A DNA stretch of 64,000 nt from Botryllus schlosseri. Lineage: Eukaryota. The first letter of the stretch is position 1, and each line of letters starts with the position of its first letter. A program made the position numbers and the translations under genes. This document shows, in pieces, positions 490 through 38,361 of the stretch. The stretch lies in the NCBI GenBank assembly GCA_051294905.1, contig CM119371.1:37202001-37266000 (forward strand). The letters run 5' to 3'. The notes beneath the pieces were generated by a model. The model was given only the letters and a program-made list of their open reading frames with translations, was not told where the DNA came from and made no database searches.

Positions 490-915
490 TTACTCAAGTC
501 ACGATTTTTTTGGTGACTCGACTTGACTCGGGTCATTGTGCATGACTCTAACCAAGTCATATAACTCAAGACTATGACAGCCAAGACAGAAATTACATTG
601 TAACTTCGAAGAATAGTAAAGTTACCACATGATTGCTATCAATCTATCAGTCCTGATACTTGACAAAACAGGGCCTGAAACTGTTATGACTGAGGAAATT
701 GACGATATTATGAATGCGAGCCATTCTATATCACTCGAGCAGAGTTGAGAAAAGGGGGTTGAACCGGAGTGAACTGAAAACTTGAACAGTGAACATTGTG
801 ACTTGGACTCGACCCTCTACTAGCTGACTTGGACTCCATAGTGAGACTCGAGGCAATATCGTAAAAGTTCAATTGACTTATAACTCGGATCATTGTGACT
901 TGGTTACGATCCTGG
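490..915. mobile_element. hAT-type MITE family A (GACTCGAGTC-rich), degraded copy
   Basis: Shares body and repeated GACTCGAGTC motifs with better copies at 31619-32052 and 32380-32882. Other pieces at 1-60, ~4352-4810, ~27040-27270 and ~33020-33383. Confidence 0.65.
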
Positions 916-1155
916 TTTTAACTAGTCGTTATGACAATTTCAATTTCTTGTTTCAAAAGCACTATCTACGTTACAAAATCCAAAAGTACAAGTGAAAGTA
1001 GTCAAAACACACTACCTCTTTGGTAATTATTGCGAGTACACAATGTACAAGTCGAAATACTTTGTTACTGACAACCTCTATATGAGGTATATTTCTTGAA
1101 TTATTAAACGAATTGACCTCAGTGCCTTTATTGCGTCCAAATGCATCTGTTGCAG

Positions 1156-1241
1156 GTAGAACATCCATGCTTGCCGGCTTTTCGCACAGATTGTTGTCAG
1201 ACCTCGAAGATCTGGTCGCGATCGGGGAACGATACAAGCCT
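1156..1241 (+). CDS. ACTR10: ACTR10 internal exon
   Basis: tgcAG acceptor and GTgagt donor, phase-compatible with the previous exon. Reads GRTSMLAGFSHRLLSDLEDLVAIGERYKP versus ACTR10 [20 protein letters not shown]. Confidence 0.85.
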
Positions 1242-1462
1242 GTGAGTTATGTTTTTGTTATCTGCAATTACTTCTAATTACAAAGAGAGTTTGACGAATA
1301 ATAAATTTTAAACTATTCCAAATTGTATCATAAATTACACTTATAGCTACACAGTTTTTCAAATTAAATTAGTATTAGAATTAATTACTGAATTCGCATA
1401 AACTTGAAATTGAATTAAGTCCCTAATTCTATAGATGTATTTCGAATTCTCGGTTTTCCGAG

Positions 1463-1585
1463 TGTCTGTTTCGCGTTCAGAACACGCCGGTCCGCGGAAA
1501 TATCGTGTTGTGGTTGGGAGCCTCAATTTACGCCTCGCTGGAAACTTTTCCTCACAGATCCATAACGAAAGAATATTTTATCGAG
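1463..1585 (+). CDS. ACTR10: ACTR10 internal exon (5' boundary uncertain: 1435 or 1463)
   Basis: In the frame +1 to the listed 1435 ORF it reads LFRVQNTPVRGNIVLWLGASIYASLETFPHRSITKEYFIE versus ACTR10 [38 protein letters not shown]. GTgagg donor at 1586. Confidence 0.75.
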
Positions 1586-1821
1586 GTGAGGGTAATGGTC
1601 TGTTATGGCTTGCGTTCGAAATAGCTGAGTGTCATAATATCAAGGCATTCAAAATAGTGACCGTACTGGCTGGGCAGGACAAGCAGGGCTGTGGAGTCGG
1701 TTCACTGTATCTCTAACTGAGAATTTTTGAATATGCCGATTAATATTTTTTTCACCGAACTCAGACTCAAGCACTCCTGTAAATCCTCTCCGATAATATT
1801 ACATTTAGTTATCATTATTGA

Positions 1822-2100
1822 CACTCTTGAAGGTACAAAGCTGAACGTACAAATCATGTATTCATATTGAAATAACCCGTAATATTTTCAGCTGATACTC
1901 ATCAGGACTGATCGTCAGCAGGTAGTGGAGAATTGGAAAGAACATTGTATGTCAACAATCGTATCACAAATGTTATTTCAAATTACCTACTAGTTGCCGA
2001 CGATTGCCGCTGATGACTGTCCTCAATCTAAAATATTCGGGTTCATTTCGATATGAATATACTACTCAATTGTATATTGGAAGTTTTGTACCTCGTAGAA
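1822..2100. mobile_element. Palindromic MITE family B (CGTCAGCAACTAGTGGAGAATTGG arms), interrupted by the 2101-4198 insertion
   Basis: Imperfect inverted arms. Related pieces at ~20229-20367, ~27308-27440, ~30330-30450, ~53380-53465, ~59470-59550 and ~60145-60270. Confidence 0.6.
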
Positions 2101-2611
2101 CAGGGGTGGGCAAACTTTTGAGCCCGCGTACCGCATTCAACATCTGAATCCATTCGCGGGCCGCACCATACAAAATTGATATTATGAACCAAAACGCAAT
2201 ATTGCATGGTGTTTGATTATATAGTGACCCCGTGAAGATAATATATATGTCTATTTAAAACAAACCAAAGATTGCTTTGATGATATCGTACTCGTGTCAG
2301 AAACAGTGGCGGGATTCATAGGCTGGTCGACCTTAATAACCAACTTATCAAAACTATAGAGATGAAAGTCGGTTATCCCGAATCTTAAAACTAAATTTAA
2401 ATCTGTGAAGAGCGATCTGTTCATAGATTTACTAATTCCGCTTTTTGTTCAGTTCTAGGACACACAATGCTGACAGCATCTTAACCATGTTAGCTTCAAA
2501 CACGCTTCTACTATATGTGTAGATAAAATATAAATACCCTTATTTTACCCACACAGAGAACGAATCTACCTAATTAAGACACGCGCGAATCGTATTTTAT
2601 AAGCTCATCAC

Positions 2612-3514
2612 TAGGGCGATTTTTTTTTTACCTAAAAAACTGAAGATTTTGACCTAAAAAATCTAAATTTTGACCTTTTTTGACTTAAAAAAATTGAATT
2701 TTGACCAAATTTTGACCTCGCGTATGCAAATTAGGTGTTTTCGCACATAATGTTAAAATTGTACTACTAATATTCATTTTTGGTTGGAACTGTCTGTCCT
2801 TACGAAGTAATTTGGTCTGAAAAAACGTTTTTTGGATCAAAAACAGACAAATTTCTACATGAAAAAACTAACATTTTAACGAAATCTGGCCCTATGAAGA
2901 ATTTAAGTAGTTACATTATGCATCATGGTGGAAAAAATAAAATAAAATTGTAGTACAACGAAACATACTTGTATATACATTCTCGGGTAGAAAGTGTCTG
3001 TCCTTACTCAGTAGCTTTCCAAGAATGCGGAAAGAACGTTCAACAGCAGCAGTTGCTGGCTGACAACATTGAAGTTGTGCGTATACAGCTGGTGACACAC
3101 CGTGTTGCTTCATTTTGACAAGTTGTCTACATCACAATTTTTCATCGTGCGCTTCTTGATATAAGAACCACGCAGTGCCCAAGCGATATAAGAACCACGC
3201 AGTGCCCAAGCAGTCTTGCTTCAGTTGGGATATTACGGTACGTTGAGCATAACATCATTTGTTTCATTTGAATGTTTACGATTCACAATGAGCAGACAAT
3301 GGGCCATCTACAATGGTAGGCCTATAAAGTAGGCTACAAGCTGTAAAATGCCAAATGATAAGTGCACCGACGGTGCAAAATATACCGTACAAACGAAATG
3401 CAGGTTGCAAATAAGTTTTTGATTTTGTAAACAATTTTGACCTAATTTTGCCCTAACGCCACAATTTTGACCTAATTTTGACTTTTTTTGACATGTCAAA
3501 AAAAAATCGCCCTA
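2612..3514 (-). mobile_element. hAT deletion derivative with C-terminal dimerisation-domain remnant
   Basis: TIR TAGGGCGATT...AATCGCCCTA and perfect 8-bp TSD ctcatcac. ORF 2916-3113 contains PATAAVERSFRILGKLLSKDRHFLPENV (hATC-like). Confidence 0.85.
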
Positions 3515-3725
3515 CTCATCACTGAAATAATTAAAACTGGAGTGGCCAATCTGAAATCACACTCGTGTCGTTATCCGAATAATGTCAATGTCGTTTAGGA
3601 TTTTAGGATTTCTGTGATGCTTGGCAGTTGAAACCCTTCAAACTGCGTGGACCTTGACATCGGGCTGTCGCGCCAGAAATTAAACATAAGAAATAAGATA
3701 GTATTTATAAGTATTTAATAGAGAA

Positions 3726-4019
3726 CAGTGGTTCTTTTTAAGACACGCCCCCCTCATGATAGCGAAAGATTTCGCACCCCACTTATCGTCATATCACAAA
3801 ACGCTGCCAGGATGCTAGCAAACATACCGGATAGTATGATGTCATGGAAAGTTACGACTGGATGAGAGATTTTTAAATATGAAATTCAGACTAAAAACAT
3901 AGCAAATATCATGAATTAAGTGTAAATCGCGCGAAGCGCGTAAAAAATTTCGGTCGAGCTCAACTTCGCGACGACCTTCATAAGGGAACGGAGCGCGCAC
4001 CCCAGTTTGAGAACCACTG
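3726..4019. mobile_element. Small Charlie-like MITE nested in 2101-4198
   Basis: CAGTGGTTCT...AGAACCACTG ends. A free-standing relative lies at 31002-31291. Confidence 0.65.
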
Positions 4020-4841
4020 CCTTAGAATTATCATGGCGAAATATACTAAGAAAAAATTTAATCACGTCCCTGCATTAATTCGATTTTTAGTACGCTTTTT
4101 ATCAATATTTTTAATAAGTTTCTTTAGACTCTCGCGGGCCGCACAGAACGGTGTTGCGGGCCGCATGCGGCCCGCGGGCCGTAGTTTGCCCACCCCTATC
4201 CTAGAAGCTCTGCAAATAGTGAAGAATTGGAAAGAACTTGTATGCCATCCATCATATCACCAAATATGATGTCACATTCACAAAAATTCAAGTATTTGAG
4301 GAGAACAGAGGGGTTGAGCTACATGTACTATTTTTAGAGTACCATATATAACAGGATTGTAGCCATAAGTTACAAGTCAATATCACTTTTATAGTTTTGA
4401 CTCGAGCCAAGTCGAGACATATTCAATTCACCATCGAGTCCATTTCAAGTCGGTTAGTAGATGGTCGAGTCAGAGTCATAGTGTTTGACTTTGGTCCAAG
4501 TCATTTTGTTCCCTGTTCAGTTTTAAGTACAATCGGCTTCAACTCCCTTTTTTCAACTCTGCTCGAGTGATATAGAATGGATCGCATTCATAATATCGTA
4601 ATTTTCCTCAATCTCAACAGTTTCTGGCTCTATTTTTCGAGTATCAGGACTGATAGACGAAATACCTACAATGTGGTGACTTTACTGTTCTTACAGTGAA
4701 GAGACTGTCTTGGCCACCTTTGTCTCGAGTCAAGTCATGTTACAGATTTGAAAAAATGACTCGAGTCATCAAAAAATATTAACTCGAATCTGTGTCAAAT
4801 CGAGTCAACGCCTGCGATAATATAGTCTTCCCTTATTTCAG

Positions 4842-4952
4842 AACAAACATCGACTTCCGGATTGGTGCGTATTGGATCTGCGACCTCCCGAGTTTCAGCC
4901 TGAAAAACCAGTGGCGATAAAAGCCTGCCCTATCTCAGCTCGTCAGGTCTGA
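4842..4952 (+). CDS. ACTR10: ACTR10 terminal coding exon
   Basis: Polypyrimidine ttcAG acceptor, phase 0. Reads NKHRLPDWCVLDLRPP (ACTR10 GRIPDWCSLNNPP) to TGA at 4950-4952. Confidence 0.8.
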   Translation, partial: NKHRLPDWCVLDLRPPEFQPEKPVAIKACPISARQV

Positions 4953-6645
4953 GAACGTCGTCATGGTCCAGTGTCGGATCGGTACCAAGAAATTCCGCAG
5001 CCGTATCGGCCCTGGCTTCGTTAAGACTGGCGCAGGCCGAGAAGAAGTAGCTCGGATTTGTTTAATATAGGATTGTCGGTTGCTTGTTCTGTGGAAATAT
5101 ACCTGTCTGCTGATATACAGGCTGCGTCTGGGATGTTCCTGTGTCGGTCGATTGGTTCTGCGACTAGTGTTGGGCAATATGGAGTATTTGAGTATCACTA
5201 ATCATGACATGGCAACGGTATGAATGATGTGGAAGGATTAGGTATCTACTTTTTATGCGACCACTATGATAGGGTTGCGATATTTTTGGATCCGGAAAGG
5301 ACACTTTTTACTAGTTACAAGATTCACAATACTGAACCCCAAAAGTGCTGATGCTATAATTTTAACGGCAAATTATGTTGCTTCAACTAAAAAAGTCAAA
5401 TTTTTGACTCGCGAAAAAGGAAAAGGTCATGTTTCCAGTCTTACTGCCGAAAGACCCGCCCGAACCTCTACGGGAGTGTAGTAGTGTATATATTTCTTGA
5501 ATCCTGCCACCGGGAACAGTGGTTGCGTTTATTGTCGAAATTTTATCTCAATAAAGTGCTGGTATTTATTGCTGATGGTGTGCGCGGGAGTCGGTCATCA
5601 TTTTTACTTCAGTAAAAGTAATGCTACAAAATCCTACTCATTTGCAAGTAAAAGTATTGTTTTTAAGGACCCAACCGTCCGAACTACTTAGAGTAAAAAG
5701 TCTGTATTCGAGTGAGTAGTTTTGGAAGTTGTTCTGTAGTTGGCTGGTACGTAGCAGATATTAGCGTGGACATGGCTTTGAAAGATCCGAATTTGTGAAA
5801 TTTTGTCGGAGTAGGATGAGAGATTTTTTTCTGAGCGGATTTGGATTGGATTTATCGATTTTTTAGGAGAATGGCGACCAATTATATTCAGATCAGTGCA
5901 CTTATGATACGCTCGGTGCCAATGAACATAAGAGGTTCAACCCTATGCCAATTTATCTTAATTCGAGAGGATTGTTGGTCGCGAAAGAAAAATTTCACGT
6001 CTTTACTGAATTTCAAGTTACGATCGGAATAGGATTGGACACGGATTTGAATATACAAAAGTTCTAGATTATGATTTGAAGTTTCGGATTTTGATTGGAT
6101 TAGGACATAGAAATTCTAAATCCGCTCATGTCTGGAGTTTATCTATCGAATGTAAAAATCACTTGGCTTGTATGTATTATCTAAACATGGAATGGCAACG
6201 GCAGATATTGCTGGTTCGTTCCGCTTCGCTGAGGCATGATTCAGAATTGTTTTGCGGCAGCGAATGTGGGATTTCTGGTAATCCAAAAGTTATCATTCAG
6301 AGCGCAGAATTTACTAAATCTGACCTTGACCGAAAGCTACTGTCGAATCGAGGTCGAAAATTTCACTTTCGATAGTGTAGCATTGTAATTTACGCCTTGT
6401 CTACGGTCCGCCGTTTAGTGTTGGCCGCGTGATGTGATTACAATAGCAACAATATCGTGAATATTATAGAAAATTGTCAGTCAGTAGCTCAGTTCAGTAC
6501 CACTCACGAGGAGGGTTGCTGTGACTATTTCGCAATAAGGTCAGTCCCTACGGTAATATAGGATCAGTATGTTGACAATAAGGTCAGACCACGGGTGAGG
6601 GTTCATGGCATTAGGAGGAAGGGTTGGGGACAAGGGTCCTATCCG

Positions 6646-7663
6646 GATTACCAGTGAACCCAGCCCTCGGTGAACCCAGCCTCACAAACCCAGCCCTCGG
6701 TGAACCCAGCCCTCGGTGAACCCAGCCCTCGGTGAACTCGGCCCTCGGGAACTTTTGTAATTAAGTGTATTAACAAAACAAGTATTATTATGAATTATTA
6801 AACTGATAATGTTATTATCAACTGATTTGTCGATCTTGTAAGGAGGTCAGGGCATGCGTAGATCACGCAGTCATGGCGTGATCAGATCACGGATTGCGCA
6901 AGCACCAAGCGCGGCCTTACAAACTCGGCCCTCGGTGAACTCGGACCTCGGTGAACCCGGCCCTCTGTGAATTCCGCCCTCGGGAAATTTTGTATTCACC
7001 GGCAACCCTAATATCCCCCCTCCCCCTCCCCTAATATCCCACCCCCGGCAACCCTAATATCCCCCTCCCCCAACCCTAATATCCCACCTCCCGCAACCCT
7101 AATATCCCACCTCCACCAACCCTAATATCCCACCTCCGGCAACCCTAATATCCCCCCTCCCCCAACCCTAATATCCCCCCTCCGGCAACCCTAATATCTC
7201 ACCTCCGGCAACCCTAATATCCCACCTCCGGCAACCCTAATATCCCACCTCCGGCAACCCTAATATCCCACCTCCACCAACCCTAATATACCCCCTCCCC
7301 CAACCCTAATATCCCACCTCCGGCAACCCTAATATCCCACCTCCACCAACCCTAATATACCCCCTCCCCCAACCCTAATATCCCACCTCCACCAACCCTA
7401 ATATCCCACCTCCAGCAACCCTAATATCCTACCTCCGCCAACCCTAATATCCCAGTACCAGCTTTAATTCAAAATTGTTCGGGGGCGGAATTCACCGAAG
7501 TCCATAGTATTCGAGAACAAGTAGAGTATGTGAGCGTCGCGTTATCTCCCCCGCACGCTTGTGAATACAAAAGTTCCCGAGGGCCGAGTTCACCGAGGGC
7601 TGGGTTCACCGAAGGCTGGGTTTGTGAGGCTGGGTTCACCGAGGGCTGGGTTCACCGGCAACC
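6646..7663. mobile_element. GG/CC-terminal MITE (Merlin/MULE-like) carrying a minisatellite
   Basis: TIRs built from CCCTCGGTGAACCCAG repeats, ending TTCACCGGCAACC. Perfect 8-bp TSD cctatccg. Sister copy at ~25100-25998. Confidence 0.8.
7000..7453. repeat. ~23-bp minisatellite (GGCAACCCTAATATCCCACCTCC)n, ~20 units
   Basis: Tandem units directly visible, each containing one CCCTAA. Confidence 0.95.
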
Positions 7664-9961
7664 CCTATCCGGGGGTCGCACACCACTACGCCATCTCCCC
7701 TTTATGACAGTAATCCATAATCTAATGACCCGAGCCTCCAACCTAAGCACTCTCACCCCAAAATCAAATTACACTAACCCTTAACCGTGGACTGAAAGTC
7801 TTGTGAACATAGCAGCTCAACTGACCTTATTGTGAATGTAATCGCACCAACCCTATAAAATAAGCTGCGTGTTACAGAAAGGTTTGATTGCATGGAAGAA
7901 TTGAGTTATTAAACAGAAAATTGCGTGTGAGATTACCACTAATTCCACTCCAGCTCCCGCCTCTTGACTCACTTTTGCCTAAAACAGGGTGTCCAAGTCC
8001 AACCTTTTTAACCAAAGGGAAATATTCGATTAACGAATGATTACAAGGGCCAAAAAGAATATCATATCTTTCTCTCTCTTCATCACTGATGATTTTTTTG
8101 CTGTTTTTCTACATACAATGGTGCTGAGTTGCTAAAATAAATGGTATGAGAAATCAGTGTGCATCAATTCATCAGTCGCGCCAAAAATCTATACCTGCAG
8201 GCTAATTTATTTCTCTGCTCAAGGGTTCCATACTCCTGTAGATGTTTTTAGTGTGATATTTCCAAGTCCAGTGTGTTAGATACTATAACCAATAATTGTC
8301 ACACATAGAAATTTGATACAACAATATAGATTGATCGTAAAAAAATGTGCCCGTCCCAGCTGACTAACAAAATTCGTCTGACATTTGGTTTTTCTGGAAA
8401 GCTTCAACAGGCCCGAGAAATTGGCCGACATGGTAGAGTGGGGTAACTTTGGGCAATCTATTATTTTGCATGTCTTTACACTCTGTTGTTTGTGAAAGAG
8501 TATTTGGTGAGAGTTGACGAGAGAAGTGACTATAATGAGACAAAATAGTATACGTCTGGCCTATTGCATGATTTTTTACCTAAACCCAACAGAAAAATTA
8601 AAGTCAAAAATTTACAAAAATAAGGTCAGTTGTGAACTCTAACGCCTCCCCTGGATTCATCGCTTATCTCAATTTCCACTCATATCTTCCCCTATTGGGA
8701 CTTATAAATAACATATGGGGATTAATTAGGTTATCCCACGGGTTGCGTCAGCAACATTCAGCTTGTTACCGTGATTTATTGCTGATTTCAAGATATTTTA
8801 CTGTTCTTTAAAAGATTACCAGTGAACTCGGCACTTGGTGAATTCGGCCCTTGGGAAATTTTTTACTATAATTTATCTGTACCTCCAAGAATCTGTTCAA
8901 ATAAAATATATTACCATTATTACCAACTATTTTTCAGAATTAGCCTAATAAACTAATATCATTATTATCAAGTGATTTGTCAATATTGTAAGGAGGTCAC
9001 GGCGTGATAAGATCACGTGATCATGGATTGCGTAAGTTATTGAGATAAAGCAACTATAGAATGTAAACATGGAACGGTAACGAACGATTTTGCAGCTTTG
9101 TTCCGCTTCGCTGAGGCTGGAGTGAAGAATTCTTTTGCGTAAGCGACTAGAATTTCTGGCAATCCAAAAGTTAACTTCCAGAGCGCAGAAATTACTGAAT
9201 CTGGGGCGGCATTGCAAAACAACTACTGCACTGCGGAATCAACATTTACCGTCATAATTCGAGAGAAGCGGACAATCGCGATTACAAAACCCTCAATAAC
9301 GATGTCTTCGAGAGCATTTTTACCGCTGACATTGACTTACCGCAAAACGTAGGAATCGATAGAAAACGTGAACGATCTGCGTCACGAACGTCACTATTCG
9401 CGAAGTTCGGTATTACAAAATTGAAATTAGCGCAGATTTCTCGCGGTAACTTACCGCTTAGCTTCTAGCTGGTGGAGTTGAATCCGCGCTGAAAATTGCA
9501 GCTTTTTGAACTGCAAAATCTTAATATTCTACTTCAATAAAGTAAAGAAGTGAGGCAGTAATCGATCTAAAAGGAAAAAGGGCATGTCCTGTAAGTTACC
9601 CAATTGGGTTGTATTTCATAGGCCACTGTTAGTAAAATCAAGCGAAATAAGGCAGTGGCGACATATAATGCTTATGAATTGAATTCTCATATATGGACCA
9701 GTAAGTGCGTGGACTGAGTAGGCTACCTCGCCGTTTAAAGCATGTATGAATATAACGGGGACTTGAGCTCTATGTCGGAAGCATGCTATTATAACCTACC
9801 GAGGTTAGTAATCTCTTGCCAAATAGATTTTTTGATATCCACTTTTTAACTTTGGCTAGCATATCGTGTGGTCTTGGTCGCCTTGTCAATAAGTAATTCG
9901 CTGCCGAACGGTAGAATTCAGTCCGATTCGGTAGGCCTATAAAGTCGTTGCGAATTACGAT

Positions 9962-14222: not shown

Positions 14223-16180
14223 GTGACCACACAGCATTATAAACCCTCATTTGATGCCATCTTTTACTGAGATTATCGACTAGACGAAATCACAAATTAG
14301 CGCCTTGATTGCTAAACTTTGTGTTGCGTCTGGAATTATGAGAGTTTACGTGAGTTCAAAGTCCTCCTGCGTGAGCTGGCCGCAAAATGATTTGAAATAC
14401 CAATATTTACATTATGCGGTAATCGAATTCGAGAGAGCTCGTTACCGCTGGTGGAGATTCCGATTTACCGCATTGTTTTGTAATGTCCCCCCTGGTCTTG
14501 ATCGAAAGCTATTGTCGCACTGATTTCAAAAATATGAATAAAACTATGGTCACGCTCCAGTCTTTGACGAAAAATCACCCTCAACATCTGGAATGTGCAT
14601 TGTTCAGAACAATCGGATATCCGCGACACAATGGCCATAACAATGACCCGTTGCGACTCTACGATTGTTCGAACAATGCCGATATTTCAGACTTGGAGGG
14701 CCGATTCTAGGTTGATCAGTGTCTGGTCATATTTTCATTTATATTTTCGGGATCCGTTCGACAGTAGTTTTCGATCAATACCAGATTCAGTAATTGCTGC
14801 GCTCTGGAAGATAGCTTTTGGACTATCAGAAATCCTACAGTCGCTTACGCAAAACAATTCTCCACTTCAGCGAAGCAGAACGAAGCTGCAAAATTGGTCG
14901 TTGGTGTTCCATGTTTACATTCTATAAAGCAACGCTCACTAATCGACCACGTGTGGTCTGCTCGTTATTGTAACTGTAGGTTGGGGAGGGATGATGTTAG
15001 GGTTGGGGAGGGTTAGGTTCAAAGCTGTGGTTAGGGTAGCCCAATCTGTAACCACAATAAGGCAGTTCAAAATTCACTGACTACGTTATAAAATTGTTAG
15101 ATTGGCCAAATCAATGCTGCACGCTAAATTTGGCTCAATTCCAACCATTAGATGCGAAGTTCTTGCATCAAAAGGTTTTGGATTTGATATTAAAAAATAA
15201 ATAATTCAAATTTTATGCCCACCCTGTAAAATTGTTAGGCTGCCAGTAGAGACGATCACACCAAATTGGGATCAATTTCAACCACTAGAAGCGATGTTGT
15301 TGCAGTAGAAAAATTTGGATTTGACTAGAATAGTATTTACGGCGGCTAGTCCTTACATTATTTATTATAGAATCATAGAGTTAATCATTTTTGTACTGCA
15401 ATAGCTTTGCTTCCAGGGGTTGGAATTGAGCCGAATTTGGCGTGCATCATCTCCACTGACAGCCTAACAAATTTATGGGGTAGACTGAAAATTCTAGAAA
15501 TTTTATTTTTCATTTTTTAAGTAATAAATCGAAATATTTCTACCATAGGAATATCGCTTCTACCTGTTGGATTTGGGCCAAATTTGGTGTGCAGTGTTGT
15601 TTTAGCCAACCTAACAATTTTGTCAAGTAGCCAGTGAAATTTTAAAAGGTTTTTTTTGTTGAACAACCCTAATGCACAAATTAGTATTCCAGCATTTATA
15701 AATGTTGAAATAGAGGTAGTCAGGTAGTATATGAAAAAGACAACTCGAGATAGTGAAGCTAGTAGATCAATCCACCTGTGTACTACGGAAAAGCAGAAAT
15801 ACTTCGTAACTGATGACCTCATCGAGCGTGATAAGTAGAGCCGGGAAAATCCAGTATTAGGCTTCGAGTCGAGTGATCACGACTTTACAGATGTGTCATC
15901 TCAACTAACGTGCGCAGCTTTGTACTAATGGTTTTGTATGTTGTGTTATGATCAATCAAGATTAACAGCCTTACACAGTCAAAAATTGCATCAAAATTAT
16001 TATTATCGTTAATAAATTGACTTTTAGCGACAAGAAAGATCGTATCATTATTAGAGTTAGCAAACGTTGTTACAAAATCTTTTAGAAATTTGTGCCTAAC
16101 ATTTTGCGCTTAAAGACTTCAAGTACTATGTTACCTCAATTGCTAGATATAGATGGAATCAGTAGCCATCATTTCAACAA

Positions 16181-18814
16181 ATGAGCGTTACAGACTCTCG
16201 TATTCTAACTATTCATCGTGACTTGAAATATCGTTTAGGTGATATATACAAGAGTGGGGAAGGATCAGAGGATATGCATTCCGGCGTCAAATATCATGAA
16301 TGCGATGTGTGTGGGAAGGCATTTACTGGGAAGGGTAGCCTGAAGCTTCATATGAAGACGCATGATGAAGTCAAGAACAATGAATGCAATGTGTGTGGAA
16401 AAGCTTTTACTCAGAAGGGTAACCTCAAGCTTCATATGAAGATCCATGCTGGCATCAAAAATCATGAATGTGCTGTGTGTGGAAAAGCGTTTACTCAGAA
16501 GGGTAGCCTCAAACTTCACATGGAGCTCCATGCTGGCATCAAAAATTATGAATGTGCTGTCTGTGGGAAAGCATTTACTGGGAAAGGTAGCCTGAAGCTT
16601 CATACGAAGACGCATGATGAAGTCAACAACCACGAATGCAATGTGTGTGGAAAAGCTTTTACTCAGAAGGGTAACCTCGAGCTTCATATGGAGATGCATG
16701 CTGGCATCAAAAATCATGAATGTGCTGTGTGTGGGAAAGCCTTTACTCAGAAGGGTAGCCTGAATCTTCATATGGAGATGCATGCTGGCATCAAAAATCA
16801 TGAATGTGCTGTCTGTGGGAAAGCATTTACTGGGAAGGGTAGCCAGAAGCTTCATATGAAGACGCATGAGGAAGTAAAGAACCATGAATGCAATGTGTGT
16901 GGAAAAGCTTTTACTCAGAAGGGTAACCTCAAGCTTCATATGAAGATCCATGCTGGCATCCAAAATCATGAATGTGCTGTGTGTGGGAAAGCATTTACTG
17001 GGAAGGGTAGCCTGAAGCTTCATATGAAGACGCATGAGGAAGTAAAGAACCATGAATGCAATGTGTGTGGAAAAGCTTTTACTCAGAAGGGTAACCTCAA
17101 GCTTCACATGAAGATCCATGCTGGCATCAAAAATCATGAATGTGCTGTGTGTGGGAAAGCATTTACTCGGAAGGGTAGCCTCAAACTTCATATGGACACG
17201 CATGCTGGCATCAAAAATCACCAATGTGCTGTGTGTGGAAAAGCATTTACTCAGAAGGGTAACCTCAAACTTCATAGGAAGATCCATGCTGGCATCAAAA
17301 ATCATGAATGTGCTGTGTGTGGAAAAGCATTTACTCAGAAGGGTAGCCTCAAACTTCATATGGAGATCCATGCTGAAATCAAAAATCAGGAATGTGCTGT
17401 TTGTGGGAAAGCATTTACTGGAAAGGGTAGCCTGAAGCTTCATATGAAGACGCATGATGAAGTCAAGAACCATGAATGCAATGTGTGTGGAAAAGCTTTT
17501 ACTCAGAAGGGTAACCTCAAGCTTCATATGGAGATCCATGCTGGCATCAAAAATCATGAATGTGCTGTGTGTGGGAAAGCATTTACTCAGAAGGGTAACC
17601 TCAAACTTCATAGGAAGATCCATGCTGGCATCAAAAATCATGAATGTGCAGTGTGTGGGAAAGCATTTACTCAGAAGGGTAGCCTGAAGCTTCATATGAA
17701 GACGCATGAAGTCAAGAACCATAAATGCAATGTGTGTGGAAAAGCTTTTACTCAAAAGGGTAACCTCAAGCTTCATATGAAGATCCATCCTGGCATCAAA
17801 AATCATGAATGTGCTGTGTGTGGAAAAGCATTTACTCAGAAGGGTAGCCTCAAACTTCATACGGAGATCCATGCTGGCATCAAAAATCATGAATGTGCAG
17901 TGTGTGGGAAAGCATTTACTCAGAAGGGTTGCCTGAAGCCTCATATGAAGACGCATGATGAAGTCAAGAACCATGAATGCAATGTGTGTGGAAAAGCTTT
18001 TACTCAGAAGGGTAACCGCAAACGTCATAGGAAGATCCATGCTGGCATCAAAAATCATGAATGTGGAGTGTGTGGGAAAGCATTTACTCAGAAGGGTAGC
18101 ATGAAGCTTCATATGAAGACGCATGAAGTCAAGAACCATAAATGCAATGTGTGTGGAAAAGCTTTTACTCAAAAGGGTAACCTCAAGCTTCATATGAAGA
18201 TCCATCCTGGCGTCAAAAATCATGAATGTGCTGTGTGTGGAAAAGCATTTACTCAGAAGGGTAGCCTCAAACTTCATACGGAGATCCATGCTGGCATCAA
18301 AAATCATGAATGTGCAGTGTGTGGGAAAGCATTTACTCAGAAGGGTTGCCTGAAGCCTCATATGAAGACGCATGATGAAGTCAAGAACCATGAATGCAAT
18401 GTGTGTGGAAAAGCTTTTACTCAGAAGGGTAACCTCAGGCTTCATATGGTGATGCATGCTGGCATCAAAAATCATGAATGTGCTGTCTGTGGGAAAGCCT
18501 TTACTCAGAAGGGTACCCTGAAGCTTCATATGGAGATGCATGCTGGCATCAAAAATCATGAATGTGCTGTCTGTGGGAAAGCATTTACTGGGAAGGGTAG
18601 CCTGAAGCTTCATATGAAGATCCATGCTGGCATACAAAATCATGAATGCGCTGTGTGTGGAAAAGCATTTACTCAATCGGGTCACCTCAAACTTCATATG
18701 GAGATGCATGTTGGCGTCAGAAATCATGAATGTTGTGTGTGTGGAAAAGCATTTACTCAGAAGGGGAACCTCAAACTTCATATGGAGATGCATACCGGCG
18801 TCAAAAAATCTTAA
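16181..18814 (+). CDS. Tandem C2H2 zinc-finger protein, 30 fingers (probably the terminal exon starting at 16239)
   Basis: 877-aa ORF with 30 CxxCGKAFTxKGxLKLHxxxH units at an 84-bp period. Branch-like ttctaac at 16203 and tttAG at 16237-16238 suggest splicing. Confidence 0.9.
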   Translation: MSVTDSRILTIHRDLKYRLGDIYKSGEGSEDMHSGVKYHECDVCGKAFTGKGSLKLHMKTHDEVKNNECNVCGKAFTQKGNLKLHMKIHAGIKNHECAVCGKAFTQKGSLKLHMELHAGIKNYECAVCGKAFTGKGSLKLHTKTHDEVNNHECNVCGKAFTQKGNLELHMEMHAGIKNHECAVCGKAFTQKGSLNLHMEMHAGIKNHECAVCGKAFTGKGSQKLHMKTHEEVKNHECNVCGKAFTQKGNLKLHMKIHAGIQNHECAVCGKAFTGKGSLKLHMKTHEEVKNHECNVCGKAFTQKGNLKLHMKIHAGIKNHECAVCGKAFTRKGSLKLHMDTHAGIKNHQCAVCGKAFTQKGNLKLHRKIHAGIKNHECAVCGKAFTQKGSLKLHMEIHAEIKNQECAVCGKAFTGKGSLKLHMKTHDEVKNHECNVCGKAFTQKGNLKLHMEIHAGIKNHECAVCGKAFTQKGNLKLHRKIHAGIKNHECAVCGKAFTQKGSLKLHMKTHEVKNHKCNVCGKAFTQKGNLKLHMKIHPGIKNHECAVCGKAFTQKGSLKLHTEIHAGIKNHECAVCGKAFTQKGCLKPHMKTHDEVKNHECNVCGKAFTQKGNRKRHRKIHAGIKNHECGVCGKAFTQKGSMKLHMKTHEVKNHKCNVCGKAFTQKGNLKLHMKIHPGVKNHECAVCGKAFTQKGSLKLHTEIHAGIKNHECAVCGKAFTQKGCLKPHMKTHDEVKNHECNVCGKAFTQKGNLRLHMVMHAGIKNHECAVCGKAFTQKGTLKLHMEMHAGIKNHECAVCGKAFTGKGSLKLHMKIHAGIQNHECAVCGKAFTQSGHLKLHMEMHVGVRNHECCVCGKAFTQKGNLKLHMEMHTGVKKS

Positions 18815-20375
18815 ATGTGCTGTGTGCGGGAAAACATTTACTGGGAAGGGATACCTCAAGTTCCATATGGAGATGTATGCTGGCTCCCAATTTGACTGAA
18901 ATTTGAAGTGAAATTATGACAATTTGAAATTTCAACCATTTTGTAAAATAATAGTACTGACGGTGCCGAATTTTTTCAAATGACCAAACATCATGTTCCA
19001 TGCGTTTTTATTTGAGATGTGATGAGACTGCGTTTGCGTAAAGACATTGTTTGAATACAAACATAGACGCTTATTCGCTGGAAATCGGTCAGATTCATTT
19101 TGATAGCCCATTGTTCGGATCAAGTCATCGCGAGTCGTTGCATATTTTGGCTCGAATCAAGTAAGGGTCAATTTTCGAAGTATGAGGCGTTATCCAAAGC
19201 CAATACTTTTGCTAGCTGCTGGAAAGTGGGAACACAGATTGAGTCGTCATGTATTATGAATCGTGGAACGAGTATAGAGATAATTATACATGCAAAATGC
19301 TTTCTAGCGCTGACACATAGCTGACATAGGCCTACGGAGAACTGCTGAACTACGTAAGTAACTGTGTACTATTCATAACCGCAGTTAACTGCTAACCAAA
19401 ACGGGATAGAATACGATAGAAACCTCAAGATAGTTGAAACAAATTCATAAGATGCCCATACATTACTCACCCATGAAGCACAATGTAAGCTTGCTCCTAT
19501 TGGTAACGACTAATAAATACATTATACGTACATACTATTCGTGTGGTTTAGGTCATATAAGAGGGGTGATTAAGGTGAATATTGCCGGAGTGAGAGCAGT
19601 CTACAGAACCCGGGATGTAATAATTAAATTACTATGCTTCTCAAGTTTTACAGCAACGTCAGCTGTGATCAACAATGGGGGCTCAGTAAAACGCACTATC
19701 ATCGGACGACTGGTTGTGCTCACAGGTCACACCAGCGTATCTCGAACAATTAGAGGTGGTCAGTACCGAAGTAATTCTAATTTCTGAAGTACTCAAGTAG
19801 TTTTCTGCTACTCGGGTACTTACTCAAGTAGTTCTAATTTCCTTCTACTTTTACTTCGTAATATTTATTGTGATCAACTTACTTTCACAATTCCACTTTG
19901 TCGAATAGAAGTAGTTTAATCCCACAATCAGGAAGATAGGCTGGGGAATTCAAGGGAAGTTTTCACGCAGTATCACCTTTTAATTGTCATAAAAGTTCAG
20001 TAAAGTTAATAATATTTACTGCGCAGAGTGGATATGGTGTGACCAGTATGATTTCACAAAAGTATCGGTGAATTCGATTTAGGTAGCGGGTTGTGTGGTT
20101 CCGTTCACACCGCATTGTGGACCGTGTAAAATATTTCATCGGTGTATATAAGGCTCATCATAGCGTTTAAAACTGATGTTTGGCAATCTGCTGCTTAATT
20201 ACTTGAGTAGAATTAAAGTCAGTCATTTGAAGAGACTCTTTGGGGTACAGAACTTTAATATACATGTTAATAATATATTCATAGTAAAATATAATAAAAC
20301 CCGAAGCTTTCCGAGCTGTCACTTTTCAAGGGCAATCGTCAGCAAATGGAGAATTTCAAAAACATGCATCTAGCT

Positions 20376-21237: not shown

Positions 21238-21985
21238 ATCTAGCTACATTGCATACAACCAATTATGACGTCATAGAAACAAACAACATGAAATTATAGA
21301 GACTGTAGGATGGAGCGACGACCCATTGTTCTAAGTTTAGATCCGTCACGCTTGACTTTGCGGAGTAAAATTCCATTCGCGAGAGTCGGATTGTCCTATT
21401 TTACATGTAAAAGTATAGGCGATTTCGGAAATACATGGACGAATTTGACCGCCGAAAAAGGGTGGAAATATTCTAGCTAGACGTTTCAAATTTTGCATGT
21501 TACGAGGAAGCATCAATATGTTCTCACTATAAAAATTTCACAACTGGCCTCCACCCAGAACACGTTTAAAATCAATTTCCCGCAATGCCTTATTCAGCGA
21601 TAAACTCTCCGCGGCCGAATCCCGTAAACTCGTAGACAATGCTATAATTGATAAGGCTTTATGCGGTAACTGAGTGGCCGCTGATACCGATACAAATACA
21701 AAACTGCCCAAACTATTTTCTGTGCATAAGCAACCGATGAAAAAAACGAATAGACTACACGGAAAGCGGATGAAAAAGAGCGACGAAAAGATTATCACTA
21801 CATCCAAAAGATCAATATCGTACACTATTTCATCGGGCATTAGGCCTATGTTACATTGGAAGACTGTACTTGTTCGTTTTGACATCTTCTTTTCTGTTCA
21901 CTAGAGGCTACATCGCATTGTCTTATATCCCGTTGTACATTTCGCGTCTTTAGCAGTTAAAAATAATAGATCCTCCGCGGCAATT

Positions 21986-22362
21986 ATGGCCAAAAACTGC
22001 GCTATACCTGGATGTAGGCCTACCTATGTGAACATTCCGCGTAGTGATCAATCTCGTAAGAGGTCCTTATTCACGGTACGAAGACCAGAGCTGGGAATGA
22101 AGCGGCCCAGAAGCAGCACGCAGCAATGGCCAGCCTCCTTCTTTCCATCAGGGACCTCTCGAAAGGAGATCGTATCAAGACGTTGCTCCATAAGGAGACG
22201 TAAGTAAAGCAGCTGTCTCAACTTCAACAGAATTAACAGTGTAATTTATAATAGAGCCGCAATCTGCGAAAATCATTTTGAGGAGAGCGACATCATTCAG
22301 CTCAAAACCAGAAAGCAACTCAAAGTGGGAGCTCTGCCTAAGCTAAATTTGCCTGAAAGATG
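21986..22362 (+). pseudogene. THAP-domain gene remnant (N-terminus of a P-type transposase)
   Basis: MAKNCAIPGC...SLFTV, then a 1-bp deletion near 22079 (restoring it gives FTVPK). A GT-AG intron at 22200-22254 then leads to AAICENHFEESDIIQLKTRKQLKVGALPKLNLP, giving the C2CH and AVP-like box. Confidence 0.8.
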
Positions 22363-23061
22363 TAGCACAATCATAAAGTTATGCAGGGTATCTCTATTAC
22401 TCAGATCAAGAAACCAATGCACCAAACGATTCCAATTGATATATTTATTCATATAGAAAGAAAGGAAGATACCTTTTCCAAGAAAAGATCGAGTTGCCAG
22501 AGACAGTTAGGCACAAAAATATTCCAGATTTGGTACAATATTCCATACCCGATTCCCTGCTATTGATACCAGACATTCTTGCAGTGGAAACTTTTTCCTC
22601 AGCTTGGTGAACAAGTGCATCAATAATCTTCACGAGCAAAGATGCAGCAAGAAGCTGATGCTGCAGTCCAAGAAGTTCGCTTACCTGCTGGCAAATGTTG
22701 GAGTAGTATTGATAAATACCGTCAGTACCAACGTCACAGAACACAGCATTCAAGCGTTTGACAAGTGGAACAATAAGATTTAAATCCAATTCCTCAAATC
22801 GTGGTCCACATACCTGGAAATAGAATGACAATTACGGCAAGCAATCTTCAAAATGTCCATTATTCGGTCGATGTCAATTTGCTCAGTCGGTGACGGGAGC
22901 TTATGCACTTTCCCGTGTTTCTTGAGTTCCCTTACGGTGGGAAATATGGCTTCACAGACGTCACAACTTATTCCACTCCACTCATCCAATCCTTCAAAGC
23001 ATTGGGAAATTTCCTCCTCGGTGATGGATTCCCAATCCTCCCACAATGATTCTTCGGCCAT
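22360..23061 (-). pseudogene. Convergent second gene of the element: acidic N-terminus, one C2H2 finger, helical region; disrupted
   Basis: ORF 22780-23061 has CDVCEAIFPTVRELKKHGKVH. It continues in another frame (22445-22831) as a plausible helical stretch. Confidence 0.6.
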
Positions 23062-24052
23062 AACTTTTACGAAAAAGTATCGGTTATAAAGGAATCAAAA
23101 TTTCTGTGAAAGCATAATACTCAGAATTTTATTTCCGTTTTGCTAATCAAATAACAATTACCATACCGGAACAGTACATGAAGATAGCTCGCTAATTCTA
23201 TAGTATCACAGCAATGTCCTCCAATAGTGCGGTAAGTGACTTATATTTTCTCGTCGGCAAGTTAAAATACATACAGATTCTGCTGAATGACGCCTTCCAG
23301 AAGGACCATGATATGGCATACCCACTTCGCCTGCAACGAAATGCCGTTTCATTTTCATCGCCTGCCCTATTATTGTTATCTTCTATAATCATATAATACG
23401 CCACTATAATAGCTATTATATCATAAATCATCGCTGGTATTCACCGACCGTGCGCATTGTGCAGCGATTATATACCGGTATATTCATCGCTTCGTACGGC
23501 AACGAACGCAAGACCGTCACGCAAGTATCCAAGATATTCACTAATCAGGCCAAACATATTAAGACGTCCAATTAGTCACAGAGTCCGTTATAAGTATTCA
23601 ACCTCCAATACTCCGACTCATTCCCATCCATAAGCATGCATTAAAGTTAAACCAACCAAACACTAAACTTTCCACCGTCTGAATTCCATGTGGGATTATT
23701 AATGATACACGTAACAATGGGAAGCTCCCTCCGCAAAGCGGAGCGTGACCTATCTAAAGGGAGTTGAAAATATTATTGCGCGCAGTGTAAATAGAGTAGT
23801 TCAACTTATATAGATATTTCGGTATATCAATGCACTAATACCGGTATAATATCTCATATTTATGGTATTATGGGCAAAAATACCATAAATATCCATTTTT
23901 ACAAGATAATTGCTGAAAAACCACGCAAACAAAATATGTCGCGGATGAATATTAATTAGGCATTTAAATCAGTCGTCACTCCATCCTACAGTCTCTATAA
24001 TGAAATACAGGCAAACCGCGAGCGCAGCTAGTGGCCAATTATAGAGATTCAC

Positions 24053-24080
24053 CATAGAATGTAAACGTTTACATTCTATA
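24053..24080. other. TIR-only palindrome (14+14 bp) with 7-bp TSD; candidate excision footprint
   Basis: gattcac-CATAGAATGTAAAC/GTTTACATTCTATA-gattcac. The arms match the termini of 9055-14926. Confidence 0.8.
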
Positions 24081-24410
24081 GATTCACTAAAAATTCCTTC
24101 TGCTGACACAAGCGTGGTCGGTGGATTTTAATATAAGTCGATTCCAGTGCAGACAGATGGAAATTAGTGCGGCCTCTACCTAATATAGAAAATCTTTCAT
24201 CGCGATAGTTTTTAGCGCAAGTTGCATTCTCAGTCAAATGCTTGCCGATGACAGAGTTCATAGCCATGGCCTGATTACGTTCTAGTAATCGCAGATCAGT
24301 TACGGCTGCGTCTTCGCGAGAGTCCAATGCGCGTGATCTAATAACGCTCGGAACATGTTGTTTGATGCGTTCCTGCAAGCGCTGAGTTGTTCTTCCCACG
24401 TACCGACAAT
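24081..24410 (-). mobile_element. Penelope-like retroelement GIY-YIG endonuclease fragment
   Basis: C..YVGRTTQRLQERIKQH...IGKHL...FSILGRGRTNFHLSALESTYIKIHRPRLCQQKEF, typical of the C-terminal GIY-YIG of PLEs. Confidence 0.75.
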
Positions 24411-25099
24411 CGCGTGCGCAACACGTGATTCATGGTTGAATTATGCGACAGTCAGCAGATTTGTTGTCACTTCATAGCATGAAACGGCAACATAATTGCT
24501 AATCCCATGGATGACGACCCTAGCGCTCAAATTAAGTAAAGTTGATCTTATTTGAAAGCCACAGTCGCGCCGAATCTGATAATATACAATAAACTTTCAT
24601 CAAGACAATGGAACCACCCCGAAATAACCTTCGAAGTCTGTAAATCAGCCTTGTTCCAAACAATCGTAACGACGCAGCACGATTACAATAACAACAGTCC
24701 TTGCGTGGTCCTCGACTCCCGCATTACCATCCATTTTCAGTACTTCTGTAATCACCTCACATTTCACCTGCCCCTTACACCCTGCCGCAGAGCCATAAGC
24801 GCCAAATGGCTGCTACGCCACTGTGACTACTACGGTATGGAGCAGTGGTTCCCAACGTGGGCGATTTTGCGGTCTTGGGAGCGAAAATAACCAACTGAGT
24901 GTTGGCGCGTTAAACTTAAAACGGCTATATTTGAGTCAAGTCGGAGAAATGGGTCTAAAGCTACAGGTAGTTCAGCTTTATCCTGGGGTTTACGAAGATG
25001 TTGAACGTAATCAGCTTCCTAAATAGGACGTGACTAAGTCCTGGCAAATGTGCCGACCTTTGATTGGTAATCAGGTCATCAAATTATGAGCCGGGCCAC

Positions 25100-36178: not shown

Positions 36179-37864
36179 TCAACAAAATTTCACAGTCCAT
36201 TTTCTGTCTGCCCACTTTGGGTGAACTAATATCCGATCCCCGCTTTCGAGAGAAATATAGTAAAGTGTCTCAGTGTCTTTTGACATGCTGACTACATGGT
36301 CGGGGTTGTGATGACTGACATACTCCAATCTTTGTTCTTTTATCGGGATTTTTAGGAGACGGTAAATCATCATTTTCAGGGCGCCTACGGTCATGGAATG
36401 GGGAAGTTTTTTTTCGAGAGGTCGCAATTCTGGTTTGTCGGGTACGACGATAGTGACTTGAAGTAAATTCGACTTGAGTGCTGTTGATTTTATGAGGAAT
36501 TCACCATCTTCCATTGCGCCGTGAACTTTGACAAGCTCTAAATATCTGGGATGGTCGTTTTGGAAGCGAGACGACGGATTATTCTTAACAGGGTCTTGAT
36601 TCCCGCCACTTTCTCTCCAGTATTTGCCGTAACGTTTCATGTAGTCCATCTCGGCGCCTTGCCGTTCCGTCGCGTCCACGGCGCTACGATTAAGCATTTT
36701 AAGTCCTCGAATTTTTGCGATGATTATCTCTCTCATTGTTTCGCTCGATTCCTTTTCCAGAACAGGGTTGCTGCGGAAATTTAACTCGTTCAAAACCGGT
36801 AATTTGTTGAGTTGATCAAATATATCTTCGTTACAAAATTTGTTACCGCTCAGCGACAGATTTGTTAACGCGGGAAAGTCGGCTAAATCGATACACGCTT
36901 GATCCAACGAACAATTATTCAGTATCAATTTTTCAAGTTTTCGAAGACTCGCTAAATTTTTGACATGTTCCCAACTTTCTACAGGATTGCCGGTCAAGTT
37001 GAGCACTCTCAAGTGACAGAAAATTTCATGTTCGGGTTGCGTTATCGCAGATATATTATTCATACCAAGGTGAAGCTCGCAGATTTGAGGCCACATTGAC
37101 GATATCGACATCGCGTTAATCCAAGTCAAACCACAGTTGTTTAAAATGATGATTCGTAGGGAGCTGAAATCATGCGCCATATCTGCCGGGGATTTTGGAA
37201 TTTGAAGTTTATTTTCCGATAGATTCAACTGCGTGAGATTGCAAAGTTGTTTTGATATTCCGGCGATACTTTCCCATTCGTGGAACAGATTTTTAGACAA
37301 ATCCAGCTCTTCTATATTCGGAGCACGATTTTCAAGGAAATCATTGTCTCCAACATGAGAAATATCTTGCATTCTTAAACTGACTGCTCGCAGATTGCTC
37401 AAATTTTTGAAAACTTTGTGAGCTTTCTCCATTCCCACTGCCTCAATTTTCATTTTGTGATGAGTGACTGGATTTGATAAATACGTCTCGACGTTCTCCA
37501 ATCCCGATAATCCAATATCTGAGCCAGCGTAGCGATCTAAGATCGCAGTTGCTATCGAAATTCCGGCCGAAATCTTGTGCGGTTTCACAAACGAACCACC
37601 AGTCTCGTGCGAGCATTTAAAATACACAACACCGTTTTTAGTACCATTATGTTTTCCGCGGCTTGGTTCATCCCATTCCACGCCTACCCAGTCGCCTTTA
37701 GTTGGCGGTACGGGTCCCAGGTATCTGACCGTCCCGATGTCACCCCCGCTTGAAATTCTCTGGCCCAGGTAAAGTATTCCTTCTGCTCCCATTTTGAATT
37801 CTACTCGCGAAGGAGATCTGAAGTCCTGCTGAACCACAATCAACCTTGTCAAAACACAGGTCAT
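36179..37864 (-). CDS. TBCE: Tubulin-specific chaperone E, single coding exon (likely start at 37792, MGAEG)
   Basis: CAP-Gly (GTVRYLGPVPPTKGDWVGVEWDEPSRGKHNG), LRR series, ERQGAEMDY...HPRY motif and C-terminal ubiquitin-like domain (KKLPHSMTVGALK). Uninterrupted ORF. Confidence 0.95.
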   Translation of the reverse strand: MTCVLTRLIVVQQDFRSPSRVEFKMGAEGILYLGQRISSGGDIGTVRYLGPVPPTKGDWVGVEWDEPSRGKHNGTKNGVVYFKCSHETGGSFVKPHKISAGISIATAILDRYAGSDIGLSGLENVETYLSNPVTHHKMKIEAVGMEKAHKVFKNLSNLRAVSLRMQDISHVGDNDFLENRAPNIEELDLSKNLFHEWESIAGISKQLCNLTQLNLSENKLQIPKSPADMAHDFSSLRIIILNNCGLTWINAMSISSMWPQICELHLGMNNISAITQPEHEIFCHLRVLNLTGNPVESWEHVKNLASLRKLEKLILNNCSLDQACIDLADFPALTNLSLSGNKFCNEDIFDQLNKLPVLNELNFRSNPVLEKESSETMREIIIAKIRGLKMLNRSAVDATERQGAEMDYMKRYGKYWRESGGNQDPVKNNPSSRFQNDHPRYLELVKVHGAMEDGEFLIKSTALKSNLLQVTIVVPDKPELRPLEKKLPHSMTVGALKMMIYRLLKIPIKEQRLEYVSHHNPDHVVSMSKDTETLYYISLESGDRILVHPKWADRKWTVKFC

Positions 37865-38361
37865 GGGTCGCGTTATGGCTCGATGTTAGTCGAACCGACT
37901 GTTTTCGTTCCAGTTCGTAGTGCAGCTCGGTGTTTAAGACGAGCTAAATGGCATTATTTGAATGCTATTATCTGAAAAGATTATTAAAATACTGTCACAT
38001 ACGACTCAATATTTAAGAAGCAGTTTTTAGGAGTATCAGCTGTCTAAATTGTAGAGGGTCCGGGGAAAGTAGCAAACTGTACAGTTCAGCACCGATCATT
38101 ACCTTAGTAAGCATAAATGGTATTTTTAAAATGCAGAAGCGTCGGAGCTTTATCTGGAATGCGATTATTTGAAAACTTCACTGAAATACTGGCACTTATT
38201 TTTTAGGATAATCATTTATGACTCTGTTTTATCGAGCCTTCCGTTTATACCGTGCCTATCTGTATAGTATATATCACATGTCACCGAATTGTATTATTGA
38301 TTTGCACGACGAATAGAGATTATCTCTTTCTCTATCAGCTGTTGGAATTCGTAATGTTCTA

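Follow-up and report, generated by a model that had tools for sequence, protein, structure and literature searches.

Introduction

Transposases of the P superfamily, as known from the Drosophila P element (87-kDa transposase, PDB 6P5A), vertebrate THAP9 and the P-like elements of zebrafish, combine a THAP domain, a P-type helix-turn-helix (HTH) and an RNase H domain that a GTP-binding insertion divides in two. Drosophila P and THAP9 elements have terminal inverted repeats (TIRs) with unequally spaced sub-terminal inverted repeats, target-site duplications (TSDs) of 7-8 bp, internal-deletion derivatives that are mobilised in trans, and a C-terminal domain (CTD) fold within the element. In Drosophila, all six domains are encoded in one gene and the CTD is fused via a flexible linker (PMC7776569). 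We analysed a stretch of 64,000 nucleotides from Botryllus schlosseri (assembly GCA_051294905.1, contig CM119371.1, positions 37,202,001 to 37,266,000 of the forward strand; hereafter the window), which holds at positions 21295-23999 an element of 2705 bases, one of eight 2.7-kb copies of an internal-deletion derivative. This family resembles the systems above in all the features listed, with the domains beyond THAP found in full-length copies only. Unlike in Drosophila P, its transposase gene ends after RNase H, and a CTD-like domain forms exon 2 of a second, convergent gene (ORF2). We have good reason to regard the window element as a deleted copy of a 6.2-kb two-gene P transposon, whose ORF2 product is likely to be the missing CTD of the transposase, made as a separate protein.

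Two genes within one TIR pair, as here, are also found in PIF/Harbinger and ProtoRAG/Transib elements. These differ in having other transposase folds, TSDs of 3 bp (Harbinger) or 5 bp (Transib) against 7 bp here, and second proteins (Myb-like in Harbinger, RAG2-like in ProtoRAG) that are not pieces of the transposase, unlike ORF2 as we read it. The RAG1-like and RAG2-like genes of ProtoRAG form a convergent pair; the family here is set apart by its 7-bp TSD and by zero RAG-type Pfam matches on the exons scanned. Kolobok elements have a 4-bp TTAA TSD and a Kolobok-type DDE transposase, against the 7-bp non-TTAA TSDs and P-specific Pfam domains found here. The P elements of Ciona (Pcin1-3) are alike in protein similarity, many small exons, TIRs and TSDs, and a second gene is reportedly not part of their description by Kimbacher et al. 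in 2009. Galileo and 1360/Hoppel, unlike our family, are single-gene elements without an intron-rich structure, and the long TIRs of Galileo have a counterpart in a sister family described below. Seven-base TSDs are made by Galileo and 1360 (PMC3698922); the TSD is 7 bp here against 8 in Drosophila P. The literature searched, which left out the Ciona P-element paper and Repbase reports, mentioned neither a two-gene nor a split P element.

Results

Full-length relatives of the window element

When the window element was compared with the 495.5-Mb genome, at least 57 matches were found, and 40 of 230 candidates were scored. Eight genome rows cover the whole 2705 bases, and these 2.7-kb copies are 97.4-99.9% identical to one another. 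Other loci match element positions 1-1245 and 1231-2705 with 3.5-4.9 kb in between; these are full-length elements of ~6.2 kb, for example at positions 501-6693 of locus L035. The preliminary description, which was made from the letters of the window, had proposed an internally deleted P-lineage copy, and both the full-length copies and the P-specific Pfam domains within them bear this out. The deletion junction of the window copy lies between 22539 and 22540, with a 5-bp microhomology (ACAAT) on both sides, and a contig of public run X1 has the same joint (L035 1731>5245). In P-element internal deletions, a microhomology junction is the product of interrupted gap repair. Among the 16 copies with both ends, 12 have perfect 7-bp TSDs, one has a 7-bp TSD with one mismatch, one has 8 bp and two have none, and the target sites of the family resemble GTGNNAC. 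The ATGAAAT repeat that flanks the window element is more than chance.

The transposase gene stops just past RNase H

At L035 the transposase has many exons, and successive + strand frames run through THAP, the P-type HTH (PF12017), an exon containing 'DEMK', a TNP-like RNaseH_N domain (PF21787) and the GTP-binding insertion domain (PF21788), and the 3' part passes from an exon '...TQDVLEATFG' to a last exon '...NPDV...PKRKRKAK' and a stop. The same domain order and early stop are found at L042, L043 and L044; in all four lineages the frame stops soon after '...QDVLEA(T/F)FG...NPD...PKRK', just past RNase H. The Tnp_P_element HTH scores 27.5 bits in L042 (cut-off 23) and RNaseH_N 33.6 bits in L042 and 27.0 bits in L035 (cut-off 24.6), while the GTP-binding insertion domain reaches 16-22 bits per exon, below its cut-off of 24.8, and the THAP matches in L035 and L042 are comparable to that of the window. 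PF21789 (RNaseH_C) gave no match, the 'QDVLEAFFG...NPD' motif being recognised by eye, and a single transposase exon found no match among PDB sequences. Among named proteins, the nearest are fragments of Ciona P transposases, with 61% identity over one exon; they include a Ciona savignyi 'Transposable element P transposase'. This hints at a tunicate origin and does not establish it.

Because of the P-specific Pfam domains (HTH and RNaseH_N), the 7-bp TSDs and the Ciona savignyi protein as closest named relative, the transposase is classified by its sequence as P-type and not as Kolobok, an affiliation that had been considered for it earlier. No CTD was found in the transposase gene of any of the four lineages examined, and the gap of ~190 bp between the convergent 3' ends in L035 is too short to hold one.

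The convergent gene encodes a CTD-like domain

In the window family, ORF2 has two exons; in other lineages it is a single exon of ~300 amino acids that lacks the finger. The N-terminal halves of these finger-less proteins are co-linear with exon 1 of the window family, in which the C2H2 finger is an insertion. Compared with the Drosophila CTD, ORF2 has ~145 extra N-terminal residues, which in the window lineage include that finger.

An AF2 model of the one-exon ORF2 of L042, built from 16 sequences (pLDDT 67.4, pTM 0.56), was compared with known structures. Among 350,542 chains, Foldseek ranked first 6p5a_B, the chain of the Drosophila P transposase complex that holds the C-terminal domain (prob 0.96, E 0.25, TM 0.55 on target). 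VIA-align placed model residues 137-283 on 6p5a_B 618-734 (Z 8.4, rmsd 3.2 Å, 113/118 residues), and a VIA-align pass over 48,161 representatives, independent of Foldseek, again ranked this chain first. The corresponding Pfam family, PF12596 (Tnp_P_element_C), matches 9/16 ORF2s of the genome at E<=1, while the next most frequent family matches 2/16.

A profile search of 1.84 billion representatives identified 161 ORF2 relatives at E<=0.001 (51 at 1e-10 and 20 at 1e-30). The 150 matches listed are 68-469 amino acids long, and none of them is fused to a transposase. A search for longer proteins with profile A2 likewise found no fused ORF2-transposase form, which is weak evidence. We scanned with Pfam 36 of the 150, picked as near full length. 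PF12596 was matched at E<=0.1 by 12 of these 36 stand-alone relatives, and two passed its cut-off of 22.6 bits (P0015 with 26.5 and P0011 with 23.3 bits); one also touches THAP9_C, and 15 have an N-terminal C2H2 finger like that of the window family. Exon 2 of the window family matches P0015 over its full length (E=3e-12). Given the fold rankings, the recurrent PF12596 matches, the relatives that pass the Pfam cut-off and the P0015 match, homology of ORF2 exon 2 to the P transposase CTD is likely, not proven.

It is quite improbable, in our estimate, that ORF2 is instead an unrelated accessory protein for DNA binding or import, comparable to the Myb-like protein of PIF/Harbinger, and that its likeness to the CTD reflects chance helices. 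Unrelated helical chains do come within 1 Z of the CTD match, the Foldseek E-value is only 0.25, the ORF2s of this genome never reach the PF12596 cut-off, and the finger in 15/36 relatives would suit a DNA-binding protein. Such a protein would nevertheless have to place the P CTD first in two independent fold rankings, as the sole match over a whole domain, and no other Pfam family recurs nearly as often as PF12596, whose cut-off two relatives pass. Moreover, the matched domain is exactly the one that is absent from the adjacent transposase gene.

Several other searches named nothing. ESM Atlas gave no usable match for the L042 ORF2, and for P0001 only a value of 0.77 to MULE clusters, which is under the meaningful level; a word-index protein search with the L043 ORF2 returned two proteins, neither of them named, and cluster look-ups of 12 ORF2 relatives gave no names. 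Matches of profile A3 in the PDB to RNase NGR3 (E 0.042) and tuberin were judged to be chance. A whole-genome search with PF12596 was uninformative, as its controls matched nowhere either.

The gene pair is recurrent and under selection

Of 34 loci examined, ORF2 occurs together with the last transposase exons in 24, and the layout is convergent in 19 of the 24: the window family (6 loci), L040, L042/L049, L043/L050/L057, L044/L059, the L041-type group and L058. The pair is thus found in five or more diverged P lineages of the genome. ORF2 identity tracks transposase identity (Spearman 0.64 over 45 pairs of 10 loci, the pairs being non-independent), with ORF2 evolving faster than the transposase. 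The ratio of non-synonymous to synonymous substitution rates (dN/dS) of ORF2 is 0.20 for L043/L050, 0.13 for L053/L041 and ~0.10 for L042/L043, where dS is saturated; comparisons with decayed copies give 0.59-0.77. These ratios show purifying selection on ORF2.

The preliminary description had proposed a dedicated accessory gene in a possible two-component transposon, and had named a one-off capture and a separate nested insertion as ways in which this could fail. The idea that the minus-strand gene is a host gene captured once, or an insertion nested in the window copy, is refuted. All six window-family loci that retain the 3' exons of the transposase (L031-L035 and L064) have a convergent ORF2, as do the other diverged lineages; no inverted repeats bracketing ORF2 alone were found in L035, and the gene has no TSD of its own. 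It also co-diverges with the transposase, has kept its intron position between families that are ~50% diverged, and evolves at a dN/dS of 0.10-0.20. The two-component view is supported; the term accessory does not fit, since ORF2 is not foreign to the element and its exon 2 is likely a split-off CTD.

A more serious alternative, which we still consider unlikely, is that ORF2 derives from the CTD and acts as a regulator, titrating or repressing the transposase, and is not a subunit needed for catalysis. Truncated P proteins (the 66-kDa and KP proteins) repress P elements. Transposase-less elements with an intact ORF2 are abundant (3.5 kb, L038 type), which fits a split enzyme too; ORF2 exon 1 is open in 6/8 of the 2.7-kb copies, and the ~190 bp between the 3' ends in L035 would permit antisense effects. 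Yet the transposase has no CTD in every lineage examined, leaving the active enzyme without one unless ORF2 provides it, and ORF2 has been kept alongside the transposase over deep divergence. Within the assembled complex the Drosophila CTD touches both transposon DNA and target DNA (PMC7776569), which also argues for ORF2 as a working part of the enzyme.

The sister family just mentioned (L038 positions 5901-9397, also L039, L062 and L063) consists of 3.5-kb elements with TIRs of ~250 bp, whose termini resemble those of the window element (TATAGAG...GGAGTGACGAC) and which have a 7-bp TSD in 3/3 cases. They have an intact two-exon ORF2 and no transposase, and the genome contains dozens of such ORF2 copies with an open frame that are ~50% identical to those of the window family. 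At L046, L047, L060 and L061 (and L045), ORF2 is followed by fragments of the last transposase exons on the same strand; these loci are probably rearranged deletion derivatives that spread.

Splicing of both genes

Contigs of public run X2 lack six GT..AG segments of L035 on the + strand, in the sense of the transposase. One of these joints, 1402/1458, removes exactly the homologue of the 55-nt intron of the window, an intron that had been predicted from the window alone and is thus real. On the - strand an X2 contig skips the 132-nt segment 5127-5258 (joint 5126/5259). This segment, bounded by GT..AG when read on the - strand, is the ORF2 intron, and its removal joins '...SRES' to 'DILEYIGG...' in phase 1. 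In L038, from the family that is ~50% diverged, a 55-nt GT..AG intron lies at the equivalent codon position of ORF2. X2 is only presumed to be RNA, although seven canonical intron skips, each in the sense of its own gene, are hard to explain otherwise. No RNA datasets listed as containing the element were found.

The copy in the window

The features of the window copy are collected in Table 1. Its 28-bp TIRs have one mismatch between them, and the pair extends to 35 nt at 91% when two flank bases are counted. Pfam THAP matches transposase exon 2 with E=3e-4 and 21.9 bits, under the cut-off of 23.9 because an intron splits the domain; the motifs CxxC (exon 1) and CxxH (exon 2) can be read directly. 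ORF2 starts on the - strand at ATG 23061 (MAEESLWEDWE...), with the C2H2 finger at 22903-22965 and helices after it. In these respects (TIRs with a perfect TSD, a THAP domain on the + strand, and a minus-strand gene with an acidic N-terminus, one finger and a helical region) the preliminary description was accurate. It had also let the two genes meet tail-to-tail near 22360, where we find instead that both are truncated at the deletion junction, and it had restored the THAP frame by a one-base change ('FTVPK'), which misplaces the lesion.

Table 1. Coordinates of the element and its parts in the window
Feature	Position	Strand	Remark
Left target-site duplication, ATGAAAT	21288..21294	.	identical to right one, perfect 7 bp
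Left terminal inverted repeat, 28 bp, TATAGAGACTGTAGG...	21295..21322	+	inverted-repeat pair I1; termini common to all family copies
Left sub-terminal inverted repeat arm	21336..21374	+	inverted-repeat pair I2, 39 nt, 77%
Transposase exon 1, THAP N-terminal half, MAKNCAIPGC...	21986..22199	+	exon end from spliced contig
Intron 1, 55 nt, GT..AG	22200..22254	+	homologous L035 intron 1403-1457 spliced out in X2 contig
Transposase exon 2, THAP C-terminal half, AAICENHF...ALPKLNLP	22255..22378	+	Pfam THAP; L035 joints 1458 and 1579/1656
Intron 2	22379..22456	+	mapped from L035 1582-1657
Transposase exon 3 remnant, ending at internal-deletion junction	22457..22539	+	microhomology ACAAT 22535-22539
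Second-gene intron stub, first 9 nt, GT..., cut by deletion	22540..22548	-	L035 intron 5127-5258
Second gene (ORF2) exon 1: acidic N-terminus, one C2H2 finger, three long helices	22549..23061	-	
Right sub-terminal inverted repeat arm	23720..23758	-	pair I2
Right terminal inverted repeat, 28 bp	23972..23999	-	pair I1
Right target-site duplication, ATGAAAT	24000..24006	.	identical to left one

When compared with its sister copies, the window copy has a private 4-nt deletion after 22093 that shifts the frame of the THAP exon, and this is the actual lesion: the stretch FTVRRPELLRNE... is read in one frame by 7/7 other aligned copies (four 2.7-kb and three full-length). Six extra nucleotides at 22015-22020 in exon 1 are likewise private, the intron 2 donor is mutated from GT to TT (22379 G>T, private), and intron 2 has a 2-nt insertion at 22395-22396. 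In ORF2 exon 1 a 2-nt insertion at 22810-22811, again private, shifts the frame, and an intron at ~22810 in the minus-strand gene was rejected, as this insertion accounts for the apparent break. The copy retains exon 1 alone of ORF2, the catalytic core and the CTD-like exon 2 both being deleted. With these parts gone and with its private frameshifts, the window copy is dead and non-autonomous.

In L035 the sub-terminal inverted repeats (542-571 against 6423-6452, 30 nt, 87%) lie 13 nt inside the left TIR and ~210 nt inside the right one, a spacing that recalls the asymmetric transposase-binding sites of the P element. Among the 2.7-kb copies, THAP exon 1 was aligned for five including that of the window, with L002, L004 and L006 outside the alignment. 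L003 and L005, probably along with L002, L004 and L006, share a 1-nt insertion that leads to a stop close to the exon end, and L007 and L008 are open. The 2.7-kb deletion form has therefore amplified in two or more sub-lineages. The exon-1 frame of L002-L005 spans 67-68 amino acids and does not end in HKET; L006, which also lacks the HKET end, reads differently. The 2.7-kb form was considered as a source of a KP-like repressor, an idea that we dropped, as THAP exon 1 is intact only in L007 and L008 of the five copies aligned.

Neighbouring features

Elsewhere in the window, a single 882-aa open frame at 16166-18814 (+) has 27 zinc fingers of the C2H2 type (zf-C2H2 in Pfam, E ~1e-177), and the opposite strand (16265-18913, -) is also open for exactly 882 aa. 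Immediately to the right of the element, a 117-aa frame at 24076-24429 (-) has a GIY-YIG nuclease motif (Pfam E=2e-5) adjoined by a palindrome at ~24050-24080, and could be a piece of a different mobile element. An uninterrupted 568-aa frame at 36179-37885 (-) combines CAP-Gly, leucine-rich repeats and a ubiquitin-like domain, the domain set of tubulin-folding cofactor E, here apparently without introns.

Discussion

The structure of the Drosophila complex offers a way to understand how a P transposase could work with its tail on a separate chain. In the strand-transfer complex the CTD is all-helical, and a flexible, disordered linker ties it to RNase H. It lies packed between two subunits, against the RNase H domain of one and the GTP-binding domain of the other, and is in contact with both transposon and target DNA (PMC7776569). 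A CTD on a chain of its own is plausible given how the Drosophila CTD is held. In the Botryllus family, ORF2 and transposase proteins would assemble on the element ends, with ORF2 filling the place that the CTD takes in the Drosophila complex. The N-terminal half of ORF2, with its acidic stretch, C2H2 finger and helices, may dock the protein to the core or to DNA, and would thereby replace the attachment that the linker gives or add DNA binding through the finger. The window copy would have lost the catalytic core and the CTD exon by a microhomology-mediated deletion, as from interrupted gap repair, and the deleted form would then have been spread in trans by full-length elements.

A number of results weigh against this interpretation. 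That ORF2 binds the transposase and is needed for transposition is our proposal, and the coding sequence of the transposase is confirmed at six introns only, not as a fully verified intact whole. For the fold, the chains that VIA-align ranks just below 6p5a_B (Z 8.0 and 7.9 over 74-76 aligned residues) are level with it in Z, and helical models can reach such values by chance. All ORF2s of the genome stay under the PF12596 cut-off (best 19.4 bits, E 0.0015-0.0017), a search of PDB sequences with ORF2 profiles A1 and A3 did not recover a P transposase, and the N-terminal half matches no recognised fold (exon 1 model pLDDT 73, best Foldseek prob 0.15). At 5/24 loci ORF2 is co-directional with transposase fragments. 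Finally, run X2 is RNA by guess only, and raw RNA run X24 contributed 40 reads that fit in part, with zero splice joints.

The window copy itself adds little, since it is a dead deletion derivative. What is new is the C2H2-bearing, intron-containing lineage, the splicing of both genes, the figures for selection and co-divergence, and the relatives that pass the Pfam cut-off. For annotation, an ORF2 has no passing Pfam match in this genome and would be labelled a hypothetical zinc-finger protein. On balance we favour the broader view that a whole branch of the P superfamily is a natural two-subunit transposase, in which the core and a DNA-contacting CTD are made as separate polypeptides from facing genes, and whose tail subunit gained an N-terminal module, often with a C2H2 finger, that is maybe a separable targeting or licensing factor. 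If this is true, the 161 stand-alone clusters, none of them fused among the matches listed, would represent an old and widespread design and not a local oddity, and P would become one of the few cut-and-paste superfamilies whose machinery consists of two proteins. To our knowledge, the role of the P transposase CTD is known from one cryo-EM complex only. A naturally split, conserved and spliced CTD gene would thus be a ready-made system for testing what this domain contributes to assembly, DNA looping, target capture and regulation.

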